Assembly (NCBI GenBank): GCA_002778575.1
Contig: PFBJ01000003.1
Location: 11,057 to 75,056, forward strand
DNA length: 64,000 nucleotides
Source: Candidatus Kaiserbacteria bacterium CG10_big_fil_rev_8_21_14_0_10_49_17
GTDB lineage: Bacteria > Patescibacteriota > Minisyncoccia > Phycocordibacterales > JABMNX01
Direction: 5' to 3'
This document shows, one piece after another, positions 2,561-48,234 of the stretch (within the stretch, counting starts at the first letter, position 1; every line of letters begins with the position of its first letter). The notes under the pieces were generated by a model, which searched no databases, was not told where the DNA came from, and was given only the letters and a program-made list of their open reading frames with translations. A program made the translations under genes and the position numbers.

Positions 2561-4180
2561 TTAGGACACCAGAGGTAATTCGAAACAGAAGCGCGAGCCC
2601 TTCCCTTCTCCATCGGATTCAGCCCAGATCTTTCCTTTGTGCGCCTCTATCATTTCTTTCGCAACGTAGAGCCCGAGGCCGGTACCAGAGACATTTACCT
2701 CATGCGCATTCCGCGCGCGAACAAATTTATCAAAAAGCTTCAGGCCGGTCTCGTGTGAAAAGCCGATACCGGTATCAGATATAATGACACGCGCGGTTCG
2801 GCCGGTACTAAGCCTGCATACTGATACACTAATAGATCCCTTTGACGTATATTTTATCGCATTGTCAATCAAGTTCGTGAGCACGTGCTTTATTTTCCCA
2901 AGGTCGGCACGTACTGTATATGGCCCGGTATCGTCAGTTTGGAATGTGAGTGTCAGATTCTTATTCTTCGCGACAGGTATTTGCTCCTCAACAGATTTCT
3001 TCGACAAATCCGCCAAATCAAAATCTTGCATCTCATACTTCATACGGCCTTGTTCGATTCGAGACACATTAAGGAAATCCTCGACCGATTCGGCCATAAG
3101 CCATCCAGACTCGTATATTCGTTCAACCGCCTCTCGCACCCCTTCGCTTACTTTTCCGTATGTTCCTTCAAGAATCATAGAGGCATAGCCCGTCATAGAC
3201 GTGAGAGGACTGCGAAGTTGGTGGCTTGCGATTGAGACAAATTCACTCTTTAGCCTATCGAGTTCACGGAGTCGCACATTTGCTTTCTCAAGCTGTTTTG
3301 TAAGCCGTTCCAATTCCTCCCGCTGTTCAACTTCACGGTACACACTCCTCATCAACAGGTATCCGAGAATAGCAACAAGAGCAATCAGAACAACCCGAAG
3401 AATTAGCTGCGTAGTCGTCTCCGCTAGGAATAGCTCAACGACCAGGAATGAGAGAATAGCAAATGCGAAAACTTCCGTCGCAATGAGTTTTAAGTTAAAT
3501 AATTTAAAGCGGACAATGGCATAAAAGATAAATCCAACGTAGAAAAAGGTGGAAAAATTCGCGAGCCAGTTGATTTTAAAATATCCAAACCACGGAAGGA
3601 TAAGGTTGCTTACCATTCCAATTGAAGATGCGATAAGAACACCGAGAAACAGCGTGAGTGTCCGTTTTCGAAACGCTGGATTTCTTGATTTCAGATACGC
3701 AAAGAAAAGAAGTGAAAGTGCAATGGAGAAAAAAATTAAAAAGTGTGACGCGTATAGTAAGTACCCGTACCCAAACACCACAACCTTCTCGCCAACTGGC
3801 GGTACCGAAACCGCAACAACTACAGATGCGGTAAAATACGTCAGAAGCCCCAATGCGCACGCCGAACCGTACGCAAGGAGCGGAATGATGCGCGTAACTG
3901 AGACAATCTCTCGTACGTACTGCGTGACAAAGTGGAGAAAAAAGACTGGAATAAAAAGCGCTGCTATGTGGTGAAGACGCGTCAGTGCGAGCAAGTGCTC
4001 AACGTCCTGAAGATAGCGGTAGTAGATAATACCCGCGGACCACGTCACTATAGCAACTACAATCAATGTGAACGTGCGATTGGCTGGCGCAGAGTGTGAG
4101 GTTCGCTGAAAAAATACAGCGAGCGCCAAAAATATATTTAAGACGATAATACTCGTCAGTAAAATGTTTATTATGTCCAT
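2561..4180 (-). CDS. sensor histidine kinase with N-terminal multi-TM (about 7 TM) sensor domain
   Basis: HisKA H-box SHQLRSPLTSMTGYAS, HATPase_c N/G boxes (NLIDNAIKYT, DTGIGF, GTGLGL); paralog of 56368-58443. Confidence 0.9.
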   Translation of the reverse strand: MDIINILLTSIIVLNIFLALAVFFQRTSHSAPANRTFTLIVVAIVTWSAGIIYYRYLQDVEHLLALTRLHHIAALFIPVFFLHFVTQYVREIVSVTRIIPLLAYGSACALGLLTYFTASVVVAVSVPPVGEKVVVFGYGYLLYASHFLIFFSIALSLLFFAYLKSRNPAFRKRTLTLFLGVLIASSIGMVSNLILPWFGYFKINWLANFSTFFYVGFIFYAIVRFKLFNLKLIATEVFAFAILSFLVVELFLAETTTQLILRVVLIALVAILGYLLMRSVYREVEQREELERLTKQLEKANVRLRELDRLKSEFVSIASHQLRSPLTSMTGYASMILEGTYGKVSEGVREAVERIYESGWLMAESVEDFLNVSRIEQGRMKYEMQDFDLADLSKKSVEEQIPVAKNKNLTLTFQTDDTGPYTVRADLGKIKHVLTNLIDNAIKYTSKGSISVSVCRLSTGRTARVIISDTGIGFSHETGLKLFDKFVRARNAHEVNVSGTGLGLYVAKEMIEAHKGKIWAESDGEGKGSRFCFELPLVS

Positions 4181-16748: not shown

Positions 16749-18623
16749 TTATTCCAGTACTGCCTTTACGCGGCGCACGCCAGCTGACGATGATTCCTCC
16801 TTCACGATTTTAAATACGCCGGTAATTTCATTCGTATTTGATACATGCGGTCCACCGCAGAGCTCGCGAGACCACACCACCCCATTGGCGTCTCGTAGCG
16901 TATACACTTTAACTACCTCCGGATATTTCTCCCAGAAGCTCCCCTCGACGCCCTCAGCTTTTGCTTGTTCCTTTGGCATTTCCTCAATTGTCATTTCTGC
17001 CTGCGCCTTGATTGCGTCATTGACATACTGTTCAACCTTATCGAGCGTCTCTCGGTCTACTTTTTCAGGATACGTAAAGTCAAAACGCGTACGTTCGGTA
17101 GTAATATTTGATCCCGCCTGGTGCACATCCTCACCGAGGTATTTTCGCAGTCCTGCAAGCAGTAGGTGTGTTGCGCTGTGGTACATGGTTGTCTTCTCTC
17201 CGCCGTCGGCGAGTCCGCCCTTAAATTTCTGCTCCGCTCCCGCACGCGAGAGCGCTTGGTGCTTCTCCATTTCGCTGCGAAACCCCTCCATATCGACAGT
17301 GATGCCCCTCTCAGCAGCAAGCTCGAGCGTCAGTTCAATTGGAAAACCGTGTGTTGTAAAGAGAACAAACGCATCACGTCCAGAAATATTCTCACCGGAG
17401 CGCTTTTCAAATTCTTTAAGTCCGCGCTCGACTGTTTTTCTGAATCGCGCCTCTTCTTCTTCAATATTTTTCTGTATTACGTCTTTCTGCGCGCGCAGAT
17501 TTGGATACTGCGCTTCGTACTGCTGTATCACAATTGGCACGAGAGTGTGGAGCGTATGCGGCTCCATTTCGAGCGTATCCATCTTCAGTACAGCTCTCCG
17601 CAGTAGCCGTCGAACAAAATACCCTTGCTCTGTATTTGACGGAACGACACCGTCTCCAATCATAAATACCGCCCCGCGAAAGTGGTCCGCAACAATTCGA
17701 AATGCCGCGCTTTCTTCCTCATTTTCACCGTACACTTTACCGGAAAGCGATTCGATTTCAGTAATAATGCCGTAGAGAGAGTCAATGCAAAACACATCTG
17801 AGACATCATTCGCAGCTGCAACAATTCGCTCGAGCCCTCCGCCGAAATCGACATTTTGCTGTGGCAGCTTTTCAAATGAACCGTCGCTTTTTTTAATGTA
17901 CTCCATAAAAACAGAGTTGCCGATTTCCATAAAACGCCCGCAATCGCAATTCGGGTGGCAGTGCTCGCCGAATGCCGTGTCGTGTGCTGTTCCAAAGTCA
18001 TAAAAAACCTCGGAATCCGGACCACCGGGCTCCCCCGCCGGCATTTTCTCCGGAGTCCCAGAGCGACTCCACCAATTTTTCTTTGCCTCATAGGCAAATA
18101 TGCGCTCCCCTTCCCGCATGCCGCGCGCATACCCGTCTGCCTCAGTTCCTATATCGACGGCAATCGCGTCAATTCCCTCTTCCTTAAAGATGCGCTTCCA
18201 TATCTCAATTGATTCTTCATCTTTTGTTATGCCGAGTTTCTCATCGCCGCTAAATACCGTGACGTAAAGTTTTTGCGGGTCAAGACCGATTTCCTTTGTA
18301 AGAAATTCAAAAAACCACGGTAACTGTTCTGACTTGAAATAGTCACCGAGCGACCAGTTGCCAAGCATTTCAAAAAAGGTTGTGTGGCGATTGTCACCAA
18401 CCTCTTCTATATCTTCTGCTCGAAATGATTTTTGTGAATCAACAAGACGCACACCGGATGGATGTTTTTCTCCCAGTAGGTACGGCAGAAGCGGCTGCAT
18501 GCCGGAACTGGTGAAAAGTGTTGTCGGATCATTCTCCGGCACGAGCGGCGCTGACGGTATTTCACTATGCTCTCGCGCTTTAAAAAATTCGAGATATGTG
18601 TGGCGAACTTCCGCTGTTGTCAT
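16749..18623 (-). CDS. alaS: alanine--tRNA ligase, short form (catalytic plus editing domains, no C-Ala domain)
   Basis: N-terminal AlaRS block FTSSGMQ...FEMLGNWSLGDYFK, editing HxxxH...CGGPH; start at MTTAEV gives ATGA overlap with upstream small gene. Confidence 0.9.
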   Translation of the reverse strand: MTTAEVRHTYLEFFKAREHSEIPSAPLVPENDPTTLFTSSGMQPLLPYLLGEKHPSGVRLVDSQKSFRAEDIEEVGDNRHTTFFEMLGNWSLGDYFKSEQLPWFFEFLTKEIGLDPQKLYVTVFSGDEKLGITKDEESIEIWKRIFKEEGIDAIAVDIGTEADGYARGMREGERIFAYEAKKNWWSRSGTPEKMPAGEPGGPDSEVFYDFGTAHDTAFGEHCHPNCDCGRFMEIGNSVFMEYIKKSDGSFEKLPQQNVDFGGGLERIVAAANDVSDVFCIDSLYGIITEIESLSGKVYGENEEESAAFRIVADHFRGAVFMIGDGVVPSNTEQGYFVRRLLRRAVLKMDTLEMEPHTLHTLVPIVIQQYEAQYPNLRAQKDVIQKNIEEEEARFRKTVERGLKEFEKRSGENISGRDAFVLFTTHGFPIELTLELAAERGITVDMEGFRSEMEKHQALSRAGAEQKFKGGLADGGEKTTMYHSATHLLLAGLRKYLGEDVHQAGSNITTERTRFDFTYPEKVDRETLDKVEQYVNDAIKAQAEMTIEEMPKEQAKAEGVEGSFWEKYPEVVKVYTLRDANGVVWSRELCGGPHVSNTNEITGVFKIVKEESSSAGVRRVKAVLE

Positions 18624-18877
18624 TGAATAATTTCTATTAGCTGAAATGCGCCAGAGCTCCACGGCGTAAAGCCGTAAAAGAGAACCTCAAGCGTATACCC
18701 AAGTACCATAAACAAAATACCAAGAAGCGCCAAATTTCTCTCTCGCCGCATTTCATTGAGCACCTTCCGGTCTATTCTGTGCTCTTTTACAATGCGCCAG
18801 TGCACCATTACGACCGTAAGGCCGAGTATAATCTTTCCGACAGTGCCTATGGTAAGTCCCCAAAATAGCAGTGACAT
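18620..18877 (-). CDS. small membrane protein (2 TM, 85 aa)
   Basis: two hydrophobic helices; stop overlaps alaS start (ATGA) indicating coupling. Confidence 0.55.
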   Translation of the reverse strand: MSLLFWGLTIGTVGKIILGLTVVMVHWRIVKEHRIDRKVLNEMRRERNLALLGILFMVLGYTLEVLFYGFTPWSSGAFQLIEIIQ

Positions 18878-18883
18878 GTCTGC

Positions 18884-18918
18884 AGTATACCATTTTTAAC
18901 TGCACAAAATGGTATACT
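18884..18918. promoter_or_regulatory. 13-bp perfect inverted repeat AGTATACCATTTT-n9-AAAATGGTATACT containing divergent extended -10 elements (TGGTATACT on each strand)
   Basis: seen directly; each TATACT lies 7-10 nt upstream of the flanking start codons (18877 minus, 18928 plus), implying leaderless transcripts. Confidence 0.55.
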
Positions 18919-18927
18919 CGCCACTAT

Positions 18928-20193
18928 ATGATGCAATTACATTCAAAAACACTGCCAAACAAACTACGAATCCGAGTGGTCGAGATGCCAGGGAGCAACG
19001 CCGTCACATCGCTTGTTCTTGTCGGGGCGGGCTCGCGGTATGAAGAAAAGGAAATTTCCGGAATATCGCATTTTCTCGAGCACATGTTTTTTAAGGGCGG
19101 AGAAATATACACAACTCCAAAAATGGTAAGCGAGACTATAGACGCACTCGGCGCTGAATGTAACGCATTTACCAGTAAGGAATTCGTTGGGTATTACGTA
19201 AAGAGCGGAAAGCGCCATCTGGATACGAGCCTCGACGTGCTCAGTGACATGCTTATTTCCGCAAAGTTTCCTCCGGAAGAAATAGAAAAGGAGAGGGGCG
19301 TTATTCTTGAAGAAATGGCGATGTACCTTGATTTGCCTATGTATCAGGTCGGGTGGGATTTTGAAAATCTTCTTTTTGGAGACCAGCCTATCGGCCGAGA
19401 TGAAATCGGAACAAAAGAGCTTATCACAACTGTTACGCAACAGGACTTTTTTGACTATAAGAACGCGCTCTACACGCCTGAGAATACAGTCATTATTCTG
19501 GCGGGCGCTGTCACCGAATCCGATATCGCACGAATAGAAAAGCACTTTGCATTCGAAAATGGCGTACGGAGCAAAAATGCGCTTGCATACGATCCGGCTC
19601 TTGCGAGCGAGCGCTTCTCAATTCGGATACGCCCGACTGAGCAGTACCACCTCCACTTCGGCGTCGTTGGACTCTCTCTGCGCGACGAGCGGTATCCAGT
19701 GCAGCTTCTGCTTTCAACGATACTCGGCGGAAACATGTCCTCACGAATGTTCCAACACGTCCGTGAAGCGCTTGGTCTGTGCTACTCCATCCGCACCAGC
19801 TCAACTGGCTACACCGATGTCGGTGTTCTTACCACTCGTGCGGGCGTAAAACTTGGAAAAGTTCATGATGCTCTTGCGGCAATTCGGTACGAGTACGACC
19901 GCGCGGCGCAGGAAGGAGTTACAGAAGAAGAACTGCGAAAAGCGCAGAGCTACCTGTGCGGAAAAGAAGATCTTCAGACCGAGGACACGGAGCAGGTAGC
20001 ACTCCACTACGGGCTCAATCAGCTTCTTCATGAACGCGATGAAAGCTTCGAGGATTTAAAGAAAAAAATAAATGCGGTCACAACAGACCAGCTCAATAGT
20101 CTTGCCACGGAGTTATTTGCGCCAGAGCGTTACAATCTTGCACTTATTGGACCGGACATAGACGACGCCAAGGCCCGTGAAGCTATTTCCTAG
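18928..20193 (+). CDS. M16-family zinc metallopeptidase (pitrilysin/insulinase-like)
   Basis: inverted zincin motif HFLEHMFFKG plus downstream E; start placed at MMQLHSK rather than ORF-track 18871. Confidence 0.85.
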   Translation: MMQLHSKTLPNKLRIRVVEMPGSNAVTSLVLVGAGSRYEEKEISGISHFLEHMFFKGGEIYTTPKMVSETIDALGAECNAFTSKEFVGYYVKSGKRHLDTSLDVLSDMLISAKFPPEEIEKERGVILEEMAMYLDLPMYQVGWDFENLLFGDQPIGRDEIGTKELITTVTQQDFFDYKNALYTPENTVIILAGAVTESDIARIEKHFAFENGVRSKNALAYDPALASERFSIRIRPTEQYHLHFGVVGLSLRDERYPVQLLLSTILGGNMSSRMFQHVREALGLCYSIRTSSTGYTDVGVLTTRAGVKLGKVHDALAAIRYEYDRAAQEGVTEEELRKAQSYLCGKEDLQTEDTEQVALHYGLNQLLHERDESFEDLKKKINAVTTDQLNSLATELFAPERYNLALIGPDIDDAKAREAIS

Positions 20194-21223: not shown

Positions 21224-21931
21224 ATGAATGACTTGAGAATGGTGTACACTGCCCGTATGGCACATGCCGACATAAAACTGGCTCCCGAGTGGAAGGTGCT
21301 TTTAGCCGCAGAATTTACTGCACCGTATTTTACAGAGTTGGCTGAGTTGGTTCGCGCAGAATACCTTACACATACGGTCTTTCCTCCTCCGAAATACATT
21401 TTCCGCGCACTTGATTTAGTGGCGCCGTCTGACGTAGCGGTAGTCATCCTTGGGCAAGACCCGTACCACACCCCTGGTGTCGCTGACGGACTCGCATTTT
21501 CAACAGGAAGCAAGAATCGCATTCCGCCATCACTTGCAAATATCTTTAAAGAAATAGAAAGCGAGTTTGCTGTGCCGTGCATACAGAATCCGGATCTAAC
21601 TCGGTGGGCGAACCAAGGAGTACTGCTTCTTAATGCGTCGCTCTCGGTACGCTCTGGCGAGGCAAATTCACACGCTCTGTACGGGTGGCACACATTTACC
21701 GATGCAATTATCAAATCCCTATCGGAAAATTACTCACATATTGTTTTTATGCTCTGGGGCACGTTTGCAGGGAAAAAAGAGGTGCTCATTGACTCACATA
21801 CGCACTTGGTATTGAAATCGGCTCACCCATCACCGCTCTCCGCGCATCGAGGTTTTTTTGGAAATGCGCACTTTACGCGGGCGAATGCCTATCTAATTAA
21901 AAACGGAAAGAAACCTATTGACTGGAGGTAA
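21224..21931 (+). CDS. ung: uracil-DNA glycosylase, family 1
   Basis: GQDPYH water-activating loop, HPSPLSA leucine-loop motif; true start may be internal (MAHADIK, about 21257). Confidence 0.9.
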   Translation: MNDLRMVYTARMAHADIKLAPEWKVLLAAEFTAPYFTELAELVRAEYLTHTVFPPPKYIFRALDLVAPSDVAVVILGQDPYHTPGVADGLAFSTGSKNRIPPSLANIFKEIESEFAVPCIQNPDLTRWANQGVLLLNASLSVRSGEANSHALYGWHTFTDAIIKSLSENYSHIVFMLWGTFAGKKEVLIDSHTHLVLKSAHPSPLSAHRGFFGNAHFTRANAYLIKNGKKPIDWR

Positions 21932-24015: not shown

Positions 24016-24055
24016 AAAAAAATCGACTCAGTCAGGTGACTGAGTCGATTTTTTG
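24016..24055. terminator. bidirectional rho-independent terminator
   Basis: A7 - ATCGACTCAGTC-aggt-GACTGAGTCGAT (12-bp perfect stem) - T6. Confidence 0.8.
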
Positions 24056-36586: not shown

Positions 36587-36648
36587 ATAAAAGTAGTGTA
36601 GTACGCAAAAGTAGAAATGGAAAATGCCACCCGGAGGTGACACTTTCC

Positions 36649-36684
36649 AGTGTAGTCACCGGAGCAAGCTCCAATGACTACACT
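36649..36684. promoter_or_regulatory. 10-bp perfect inverted repeat AGTGTAGTCA-n16-TGACTACACT upstream of efflux operon
   Basis: seen directly; core AGTGTAGT/ACTACACT shared with hairpin at 48170-48207. Confidence 0.45.
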
Positions 36685-36820
36685 CCAAACGTATCATGCA
36701 CAGTATCGTTTTGCAAGAGTTTGCAAAGGTGCTGTGGATAAATGCGATCCTAATCCGAATAATTCCCTCTACAAAGCCAATTTTGACAAATTGTGTATTT
36801 TAATGTACTTTTATCCAGCT

Positions 36821-46159: not shown

Positions 46160-46250
46160 CTGCACTCACGCATCACCTTAACGTTGCGTCGAGATGTGCC
46201 CGACAGCCTGCGCAGGCATCTTGCAAAATACCCCTGCCTCACATCACTAC

Positions 46251-46283
46251 AAAAACATCACACTATTTCTGTGTGATGTTTTT
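46251..46283. terminator. bidirectional terminator hairpin
   Basis: AAAACATCACAC-tatttct-GTGTGATGTTTT 12-bp perfect stem flanked by A and T runs; terminates the minus-strand tRNA transcript. Confidence 0.7.
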
Positions 46284-46292
46284 GTGACGATG

Positions 46293-46329
46293 TGGACCAA
46301 ACCGGAATTGAGCCAGCGACCTCCTGAGT
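46293..46329 (-). pseudogene. tRNA 3'-half remnant (anticodon-loop position 37 to discriminator), 31/37 identical to 3' half of adjacent tRNA-Ala
   Basis: ACTCAGGAGGTCGCTGGCTCAATTCCGGTTTGGTCCA; no 5' half or foldable anticodon stem. Confidence 0.6.
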
Positions 46330-46330
46330 A

Positions 46331-46376
46331 ATTGCACCCTAACAAAATGAGATGATCGAGTTTGATTACACTGTGG
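46331..46376. repeat. left arm of about 46-bp imperfect inverted repeat flanking tRNA-Ala
   Basis: reverse complement of 46449-46496 with two substitutions and a short indel. Confidence 0.6.
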
Positions 46377-46447
46377 ACCCGACTGGAATCGAACCAGCGA
46401 CCTCCTGAGTGCAAAACAGGTGCTCTAGCCAACTGAGCTACGGGCCC
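46374..46447 (-). tRNA. tRNA-Ala (anticodon UGC)
   Basis: cloverleaf folds; anticodon loop UUUGCAC; G3:U70 alanine identity pair; TTCGATT T-loop; no encoded CCA. Confidence 0.9.
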
Positions 46448-47574: not shown

Positions 47575-47628
47575 TACATACAGTATACCAAAGCAAAGCC
47601 CGCCGTGCGTGTGCACGGCGGGTGGGAA

Positions 47629-48066: not shown

Positions 48067-48169
48067 CAGGAACTCCCTTCACTTGAGGTCCCAGACCTCT
48101 GTCATTGCTGCCGCCACCCACGACAACAGCTGCCTGGAGAATATCAACTCGTAAACAATTCTGCAACTA

Positions 48170-48207
48170 CTTCCACTACACTGGAAGCATTTTCAGTGTA
48201 GTGGAAG
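48170..48207. promoter_or_regulatory. 14-bp perfect inverted repeat CTTCCACTACACTG-n10-CAGTGTAGTGGAAG
   Basis: seen directly between uvrC and downstream gene; shares AGTGTAGT core with 36649-36684. Confidence 0.45.
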
Positions 48208-48234
48208 TGAATAATTGATTCTGCCGAGGTAGTG

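Follow-up and report, generated by a model that had tools for sequence, protein, structure and literature searches.

It is well established that genes of the Actinobacteria and of Deinococcus-Thermus can be leaderless and carry a -10 box, often an extended one, next to the start codon. The element considered here is a perfect inverted repeat at positions 18884-18918 of a 64,000-nt (64-kb) stretch of contig PFBJ01000003.1 from Candidatus Kaiserbacteria bacterium CG10_big_fil_rev_8_21_14_0_10_49_17; the whole stretch is referred to as the window. The repeat separates a minus-strand operon, composed of a small membrane protein gene and alaS, from a plus-strand gene encoding an M16 peptidase. With a probability of about 0.72, it is read as two separate -35-less extended -10 (TGnTATACT) promoters of the sigma-70 type that would lie back to back and face outwards, which would be the default promoter architecture of this genome and its relatives. 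Among the described systems, group C of GeneMarkS-2 has a Pribnow box at first-in-operon genes, 6-8 nt away from their start (PMC6028130), and the '-10 region adjacent to ORFs' (open reading frames) of Deinococcus-Thermus has been shown experimentally (PMC12340547). In the bidirectional promoters of Warman and colleagues, which have a shared or overlapping -10, divergent transcription start sites (TSSs) are separated by 18 bp and commonly also by 10 or 23 bp (PMC12825309). Tsurumaki et al. detected the anti-Shine-Dalgarno (anti-SD) motif in only 48% of Parcubacteria (PMC9297842), and this loss fits the many non-SD starts seen in the window.

The likeness to group C (Mycobacterium, Streptomyces, Deinococcus-Thermus) lies in the Pribnow-type box 6-9 nt before the ATG, the lack of an SD motif and the large fraction of first-in-operon genes concerned, and operon-internal genes use SD or coupling in both cases. 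The locus differs in that its host belongs to the candidate phyla radiation (CPR/Patescibacteria), the consensus TGGTATACT carries a strong TG extension and the arrangement is here predicted from sequence. Extended -10 (TGn) promoters, including those with the Gram-positive TRTGn '-16 region', also have the TG one base upstream of TANNNT, no -35 and an R at -17 (ATGG), although the hexamer consensus here is TATACT, not TATAAT, and its function is assumed. As at classical divergent promoters, an outward-facing pair occupies one short intergenic region (50 nt between ATGs, and ~48 nt in the related loci L082 and L001); here, however, the arms are identical over 13 nt and both transcripts are predicted to be leaderless or nearly so. 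The control region would therefore measure only 50 bp, with no room for regulator sites outside the boxes.

Two outward-facing -10 boxes in a perfect inverted repeat

A preliminary description of this locus reported a perfect inverted repeat with an extended -10 on each strand close to a start codon, and its coordinates and description are correct in both respects. The two 13-nt arms are 100% complementary (13/13) and are separated by a 9-nt spacer, the region 18884-18918 reading AGTATACCATTTT-TAACTGCAC-AAAATGGTATACT (Table 1). The core box TGGTATACT is present once per arm, on opposite strands and facing outwards in both. Both arms read TGgTATACT, which corresponds to the extended -10 form TGnTANNNT with the TG one base upstream of the hexamer, and the hexamer TATACT features an A at position 2 and a T at position 6 on both strands. 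On the minus strand, TATACT ends at 18884 and is followed by 6 nt (GCAGAC) and the ATG at 18877. On the plus strand, the last base of the hexamer is 18918, and 9 nt (CGCCACTAT) lead from it to the ATG at 18928, with a second ATG immediately after at 18931. The two hexamers are 23 bp apart (29 bp centre to centre), 50 nt lie between the divergent ATGs, and each arm contains an internal palindrome GTATAC. No -35 signal is found in the window promoters genome-wide; at the locus, no -35/-10 pair is reported by a generic sigma-70 scanner, and CCATTT, located where a -35 with 17-bp spacing would lie, has 0/6 matches to TTGACA. The SD motif score is 0 at 18877, 18928 and 18931.

Judged by its occurrences, TGGTATACT is the genome's own putative promoter consensus, and the palindrome is an ordinary instance of it rather than a special regulatory site. 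The window contains 6 exact copies, and with one mismatch or fewer the count is 22 against 7.0 +/- 2.2 expected, a number reached in 0/100 shuffles. A search of the window for further TGGTATACT-n-ATG arrangements identified several: copies of this type at 47582, 23009, 44422, 23555 and 15507 likewise lie 7-9 nt before the ATGs of long ORFs, and two start-adjacent boxes are directly 3' of terminator-like hairpins (47574, 44414). The distance from TANNNT to the ATG was surveyed for every ATG opening an ORF of at least 80 codons in the window, and it peaks at 7 nt (19 cases, background ~4-5). With the stricter pattern TA[TCG]A[CAG]T, 14 matches fall at gaps 6-9 and almost none at other gaps. The 6-9 nt peak, inside which both the minus and the plus gap (6 and 9 nt) fall, is ATG-specific and is absent from the GTG/TTG starts of the window. 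A start-adjacent -10 box is present at ~20-25 of the 59 window genes and a clear GGAGG-type SD at a smaller set, while many operon-internal genes possess neither. Upstream of the hexamer, only TG/TGG is informative among the window promoters.

Table 1. Positions of the palindrome and its flanking genes within the window.
Feature	Positions	Strand	Description
Left arm	18884..18896	-	Reads AAAATGGTATACT on the minus strand; TG 18892-18891, hexamer 18889-18884; putative promoter of the small-protein/alaS operon
Spacer TAACTGCAC	18897..18905	.	9 nt; spacer/-35 zone of both putative promoters; without a -35-like hexamer
Right arm	18906..18918	+	AAAATGGTATACT; TG 18910-18911, hexamer 18913-18918; putative M16 peptidase promoter
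85-aa small hydrophobic protein gene	18620..18877	-	ATG 6 nt after the hexamer; A of ATG = position 7, preceded by C
alaS, 624 aa	16749..18623	-	PF01411/PF07973; without SD; ATG overlaps the small ORF stop (ATGA, 18623-18620)
M16 (pitrilysin-family) peptidase gene	18928..20193	+	PF00675/PF05193; ATGATG 18928/18931, 9 or 12 nt after the hexamer; 421/420 aa

The proposed mechanism is that the RNA polymerase holoenzyme would recognise each TGGTATACT through sigma regions 2 and 3, without -35 contact, and that the DNA would melt from the A at -11, with initiation 7-8 nt past the end of the hexamer. For the minus-strand operon, position 7 is the A of ATG 18877 and follows a C; this is an ideal predicted TSS (Y-1/R+1) and implies that the mRNA of the 85-aa membrane protein is truly leaderless. 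Translation of alaS would then proceed by termination-reinitiation at the ATGA overlap. Counted from the end of the plus-strand hexamer, A18926 follows a T and occupies position 8, and position 10 is taken by the A of ATG 18928. The peptidase TSS is likely at about 18926-18928, giving a leader of 0-2 nt, and initiation at A18926 is probably favoured, so that a 2-nt leader would precede ATG 18928 and the mRNA would not be strictly leaderless. The preliminary description implied leaderless mRNAs on both sides; the minus side is consistent with this by its 6-nt gap, and the plus side is predicted to be only near-leaderless. Ribosomes would start directly at the 5'-terminal AUG without an SD interaction. 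The predicted divergent TSSs are about 49-51 bp apart. As the boxes lie so close together, simultaneous occupancy by two polymerases is probably impossible and the promoters may compete, since the upstream footprint of each polymerase would cover the -10 of the other promoter.

Related CPR loci and the genes on either side

The arrangement of a box next to the ATG is both conserved and general, because it recurs in the orthologues and in ~600 kb of related CPR loci, and the palindrome does not. Orthologues of both genes keep a putative -10 box 6-10 nt before the ATG. Many M16 orthologues in CPR metagenome-assembled genomes (MAGs) have a -10-like hexamer (TATAAT/TACACT/TAGACT) 6-9 nt before the ATG, for example TGATATAAT-N8 (L020), TGGTATAAT-N9 (L037), TACACT-N6 (L033, L040) and TATAGT-N8 (L016). 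The closest relative, L081 (82% protein identity), retains TGGTATACT-N9-ATGATG but is without the left arm, the spacer and the small gene, and has GAAG in place of AAAA. In the more distant L082 and L001 (63%), the two genes are still divergent, the minus side having TATACT-N7-ATG and the plus side TGCTATTAT-N8/N7-ATG, and the extended palindrome is absent. Small-gene orthologues have TGCTACAAT-N8 (L089), TGCTATACT-N10 (L091) and TGTTATACT-N9 (L093) before the ATG regardless of the upstream neighbour, and L090 retains the divergent M16 gene with TAGAAT-N7-ATG. The extended dyad is absent from all four of these loci. Across the ~600 kb, with the M16 gene excluded, the box-to-ATG gap peaks again at 6-8 nt; a gap of 6 occurs 39 times against 16.4 +/- 4.2 in L001-L055, and the count in L056-L080 is 21 against 6.2 +/- 2.4. 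Together these patterns support the promoter and (near-)leaderless reading of both arms well, if indirectly. A fixed inter-box geometry as a general rule for divergent leaderless pairs was rejected, a spacing of 21-23 bp being common to orthologous loci only.

Within-population variation is uninformative, as the 3.2 kb compared between three independent samples of this population show 100% identity. The L081 locus occurs in the same European Nucleotide Archive (ENA) sample as an identical copy of the window. Its region 2836-3000 contains neither the small gene nor the minus-strand promoter, and its alaS has its own TGGTAGCAT box 13 nt before the ATG. The L081 junction AAGTGGTATACT is what would be expected if 41 bp of the window sequence (CAGTG|...|GTATACT) had been deleted between two of its TG sites. 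It is speculation that an ORF remnant in L081 is a decayed small-protein gene left by this deletion; BLASTP shows no similarity for the remnant.

The identities given to alaS and the M16 peptidase in the preliminary description are borne out by their Pfam matches (Table 1). The start codon of the peptidase is well defined by its homologues, 88/120 of which are 420 aa long; their N-terminal pattern M[KQ][LI]H.K.L.NGL aligns with MMQLHSKTLPNKL, the sequence at 18928/18931. The best relatives are all CPR/Patescibacteria MAGs, and the Pfam M16 domain starts at residue 20 of the peptidase. Initiation at GTG 18871, which would place the motif inside the coding region and which the preliminary description had named in advance as counting against its interpretation, was checked and is excluded, because the homologue N-termini align to 18928/18931; the position of the Pfam domain also excludes it. 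In a Joint Genome Institute (JGI) sample, the call for an identical peptidase (P0001) has 402 aa and starts at ATG 18985. As the alignments indicate, this call is an under-call: the 19 N-terminal residues that it misses are conserved in 88/120 homologues.

The 85-aa protein on the minus side is 100% identical to a hypothetical protein of the MAG Candidatus Kaiserbacteria bacterium CG10_big_fil_rev_8_21_14... and has homologues at 49-70% identity with the N-termini M[SD]LLFWG; a Pfam search of this protein gave no match. The alanyl-tRNA synthetase encoded by alaS is short here (624 aa) and ends at the tRNA_SAD domain. An overlap between the small ORF and alaS likewise exists in the relatives L082, L091 and L093, where it is 14 nt long in place of the ATGA of the window. 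Translation of alaS is probably coupled to the putatively leaderless small ORF, because alaS lacks an SD and its ATG overlaps the small-ORF stop, and the small membrane ORF may serve as a coupling cistron for alaS.

Rival readings and the origin of the symmetry

The preliminary description also proposed a shared, operator-like symmetric site, and this is not supported: the dyad is not kept in relatives, L081 is without the left arm and no regulator gene is adjacent. In its full form this model has a dimeric transcription factor bind the 13-9-13 palindrome, cover both -10 boxes and co-regulate the alaS operon and the peptidase. It shares with known repressor operators a dyad between divergent genes in the classical position overlapping both -10 elements, and it would account for a dyad that extends 4 bp past the promoter consensus and for a 13/13 identity that is unlikely for independent promoters; two other palindromes in the window contain the -10-like TACACT, so that symmetric promoter sites recur. 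It differs from such operators in that the symmetry is not conserved, no cognate regulator is nearby and the half-site is the general promoter consensus. Among the 8 neighbouring proteins a DNA-binding domain is absent. No second dyad exists in the 64-kb window, where matches to the arm are ordinary single promoters, and in unrelated metagenome contigs with identical arms the spacer varies (6, 8 and 12 nt), as a dimer of fixed geometry would not allow. Both boxes but no extended palindrome are present in L082 and L001, L081 has lost the left arm, the spacer and the AAAA yet retains the peptidase promoter, and the small-gene orthologues of L089, L091 and L093 are without the palindrome. The operator model is accordingly considered improbable. 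Equally improbable is that the boxes are not active promoters, with a TSS further upstream in the neighbouring gene and the palindrome acting as a hairpin in the 5' untranslated region or being irrelevant. A TANNNT hexamer, TATGGT (18849-18854), does lie upstream on the plus strand, and gene callers place the peptidase start elsewhere (ATG 18985, P0001), but the 19 N-terminal residues skipped by that call are conserved as described above. A hairpin leader would still be without an SD, a terminator-like T-run is absent, and an upstream TSS leaves unexplained both the 6-9 nt peak across the genome and lineage and the conserved box-to-ATG distance in the orthologues.

Divergent transcription generates negative supercoils between promoters, as at ilvY-ilvC. 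An AT-rich palindrome in such a position could extrude a cruciform or ease melting and so couple both promoters to superhelical density, and the single-strand hairpin is stable for its size: the 50-nt intergenic spacer folded as single-stranded DNA gives -10.9 kcal/mol (z = -5.6, 200 shuffles). Arms of 13 bp with a 9-nt loop are nevertheless short for cruciform extrusion in vivo and the palindrome is not conserved in relatives, which makes a structural role of this kind very unlikely. The lowest probability, close to negligible, falls to a single pseudo-symmetric promoter of the type described by Warman and Grainger, in which a shared or overlapping -10 fires both ways. The symmetric sequence, the divergent transcription, the possible competition between polymerases and the internal GTATAC of each arm resemble that type (PMC12825309), but its TSSs lie 10, 18 or 23 bp apart around one -10. 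Here there are two distinct hexamers with predicted TSSs ~50 bp apart, and the opposite-strand reading of each arm is TATACC, without the essential T at -7. An intrinsic terminator or transcribed hairpin was rejected as a candidate: no terminator-like site occurs in 18700-19100, the stem is rich in AT and not followed by a T-run, and the flanking genes diverge. Rfam and tRNA scans of the window identified only a tRNA-Ala (46373-46447) and nothing near the palindrome.

The following observations weigh against the preferred reading. With position-specific frequencies from 21 other start-adjacent window promoters, the probability that two independently evolving promoters are identical over 13 nt is about 2e-5, and the best of 231 other window promoter pairs is identical at 11/13; because this identity is so improbable, some factor in addition to the two consensus boxes has acted. 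On the plus side, the 9-nt gap leaves the ATG at position 10, away from the preferred start position, so strict leaderlessness of the peptidase mRNA is uncertain. For in-frame ATGs inside ORFs (e.g. 19315, 39906, 28334), a loose TANNNT hexamer at a gap of exactly 7 nt is likewise seen in 6 weak cases versus ~1.9 expected. This internal-ATG negative control included two genuine starts, a small excess of weak hexamers persists after those, and it could be chance, a codon-composition effect or internal promoters. No relatives between 82% and 100% identity were found, and template switching and duplication are candidate origins of the symmetry.

The symmetry statistically exceeds that of two consensus boxes. 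Of the 13 arm positions, 9-10 correspond to the genome promoter consensus, and the four extra AAAA/TTTT positions are not conserved even in L081; AAAA was rejected as part of the promoter consensus, A being merely weakly enriched at -7/-6 among the window promoters. The perfect symmetry is most likely a recent, lineage-specific and neutral or nearly neutral by-product. Two opposed -10 boxes would automatically form a quasi-palindrome, which template-switch correction or a small inverted duplication could perfect; candidate origins are inverted duplication, template-switch correction of a quasi-palindrome, or convergence of two housekeeping promoters on the optimal box. There is slight room, a little less than for the operator model, for the perfect dyad having been selected as a symmetric control element, either a site for a CPR global regulator or a supercoiling- or cruciform-sensitive switch. 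Such an element would make the alaS operon and the M16 peptidase gene fire either in co-ordination or one at a time, from 50 bp that contain only the two putative leaderless promoters. If this were true, the -10-containing palindromes at 36644-36689 and 48169-48208 of the window would reflect a general CPR strategy of regulation built into promoter boxes.

A metagenome-wide scan for the same arms with spacers of 5-13 nt identified four contigs from unrelated organisms (GC 37-67%) without tblastx similarity. Their spacers are 6, 6, 12 and 8 nt, and one has an arm 7 nt before an ATG. They were rejected as homologues of the site, their context and GC content being unrelated and two being part of a much longer palindrome. 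In these two, L085 (2387-2418) and L086 (2224-2255), with a GC content of 65-67%, the arms lie inside a much longer perfect palindrome ...GATTAAACAGGGAC AGTATACCATTTTCAGCTGAAAATGGTATACT GTCCCTGTTTAATC..., one of which is at a contig end. Possible explanations of the long palindrome are a hairpin end, a mobile-element terminus and an assembly artefact.

Other palindromes, gene calls and significance for the CPR

Several further inverted repeats are present in the window. A near-palindrome at 36644-36689 lies between divergent genes, a small ORF without a Pfam match (ATG 36586 or GTG 36643) and an HlyD-like/AcrB RND efflux operon. Its 22-nt arms (36644-36665 and 36668-36689) are 82% complementary and feature TACACT on both strands (TTCCAGTGTAGTCA ... 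TGACTACACTCCAA), with ATG 36674 within the right arm and GGAG at the centre. A true operator is one possibility for this site, a further symmetric pair of promoters the other. The palindrome at 48169-48208 has 18-nt arms that are 94% complementary and the same TTCCAGTGTAGT motif, the four window copies of which are exactly these two palindromes; its TACACT boxes point towards each other, and the two genes that flank it are both on the minus strand. A perfect palindrome with 18-nt arms (AAAAAATCGACTCAGTCA/TGACTGAGTCGATTTTTT) in the intergenic gap at 24017-24054 resembles a bidirectional terminator, and an inverted repeat with 24-nt arms (46240-46294, 88% complementary) adjoins the tRNA-Ala. Another divergent pair, encoding an HD-domain protein and UDG (21197/21257), has 59 nt between its ATGs, with TGGTATGAT-N11-ATG on the minus side and TGTACACT-N6-ATG on the plus side. 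UDG begins not at its first ATG (21224) but at 21257, which gives 224 aa and agrees with the call in L081.

Two gene calls from the related loci, P0004 (426 aa; L082 3001-4281) and P0123 (93 aa; L089 187-468), begin at an ATG inside the TGCTAT.../TGCTACAAT -10 box. Standard gene callers thus misplace the starts of these putatively leaderless genes, and for this reason CPR proteomes probably carry systematic N-terminal errors. The result at the locus mostly demystifies the palindrome, which would consist of two standard promoter boxes and no new regulatory device. As a minimal divergent control region of 50 bp, it is a possible compact bidirectional expression part.

In the searched literature, the only TSS set found for the CPR is that of Nanosynbacter lyticus, and searches on leaderless architecture in CPR, Patescibacteria, Saccharibacteria and Parcubacteria gave only reference-list matches and no describing paper. 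This Kaiserbacteria-labelled genome and the ~600 kb of CPR loci carry the signature of abundant leaderless genes, namely -10 boxes at 6-9 nt from the ATG, an absent -35 and, in many cases, no SD. The signature has not been described for the CPR/Patescibacteria in the searchable literature and would represent a known architecture in a new lineage.

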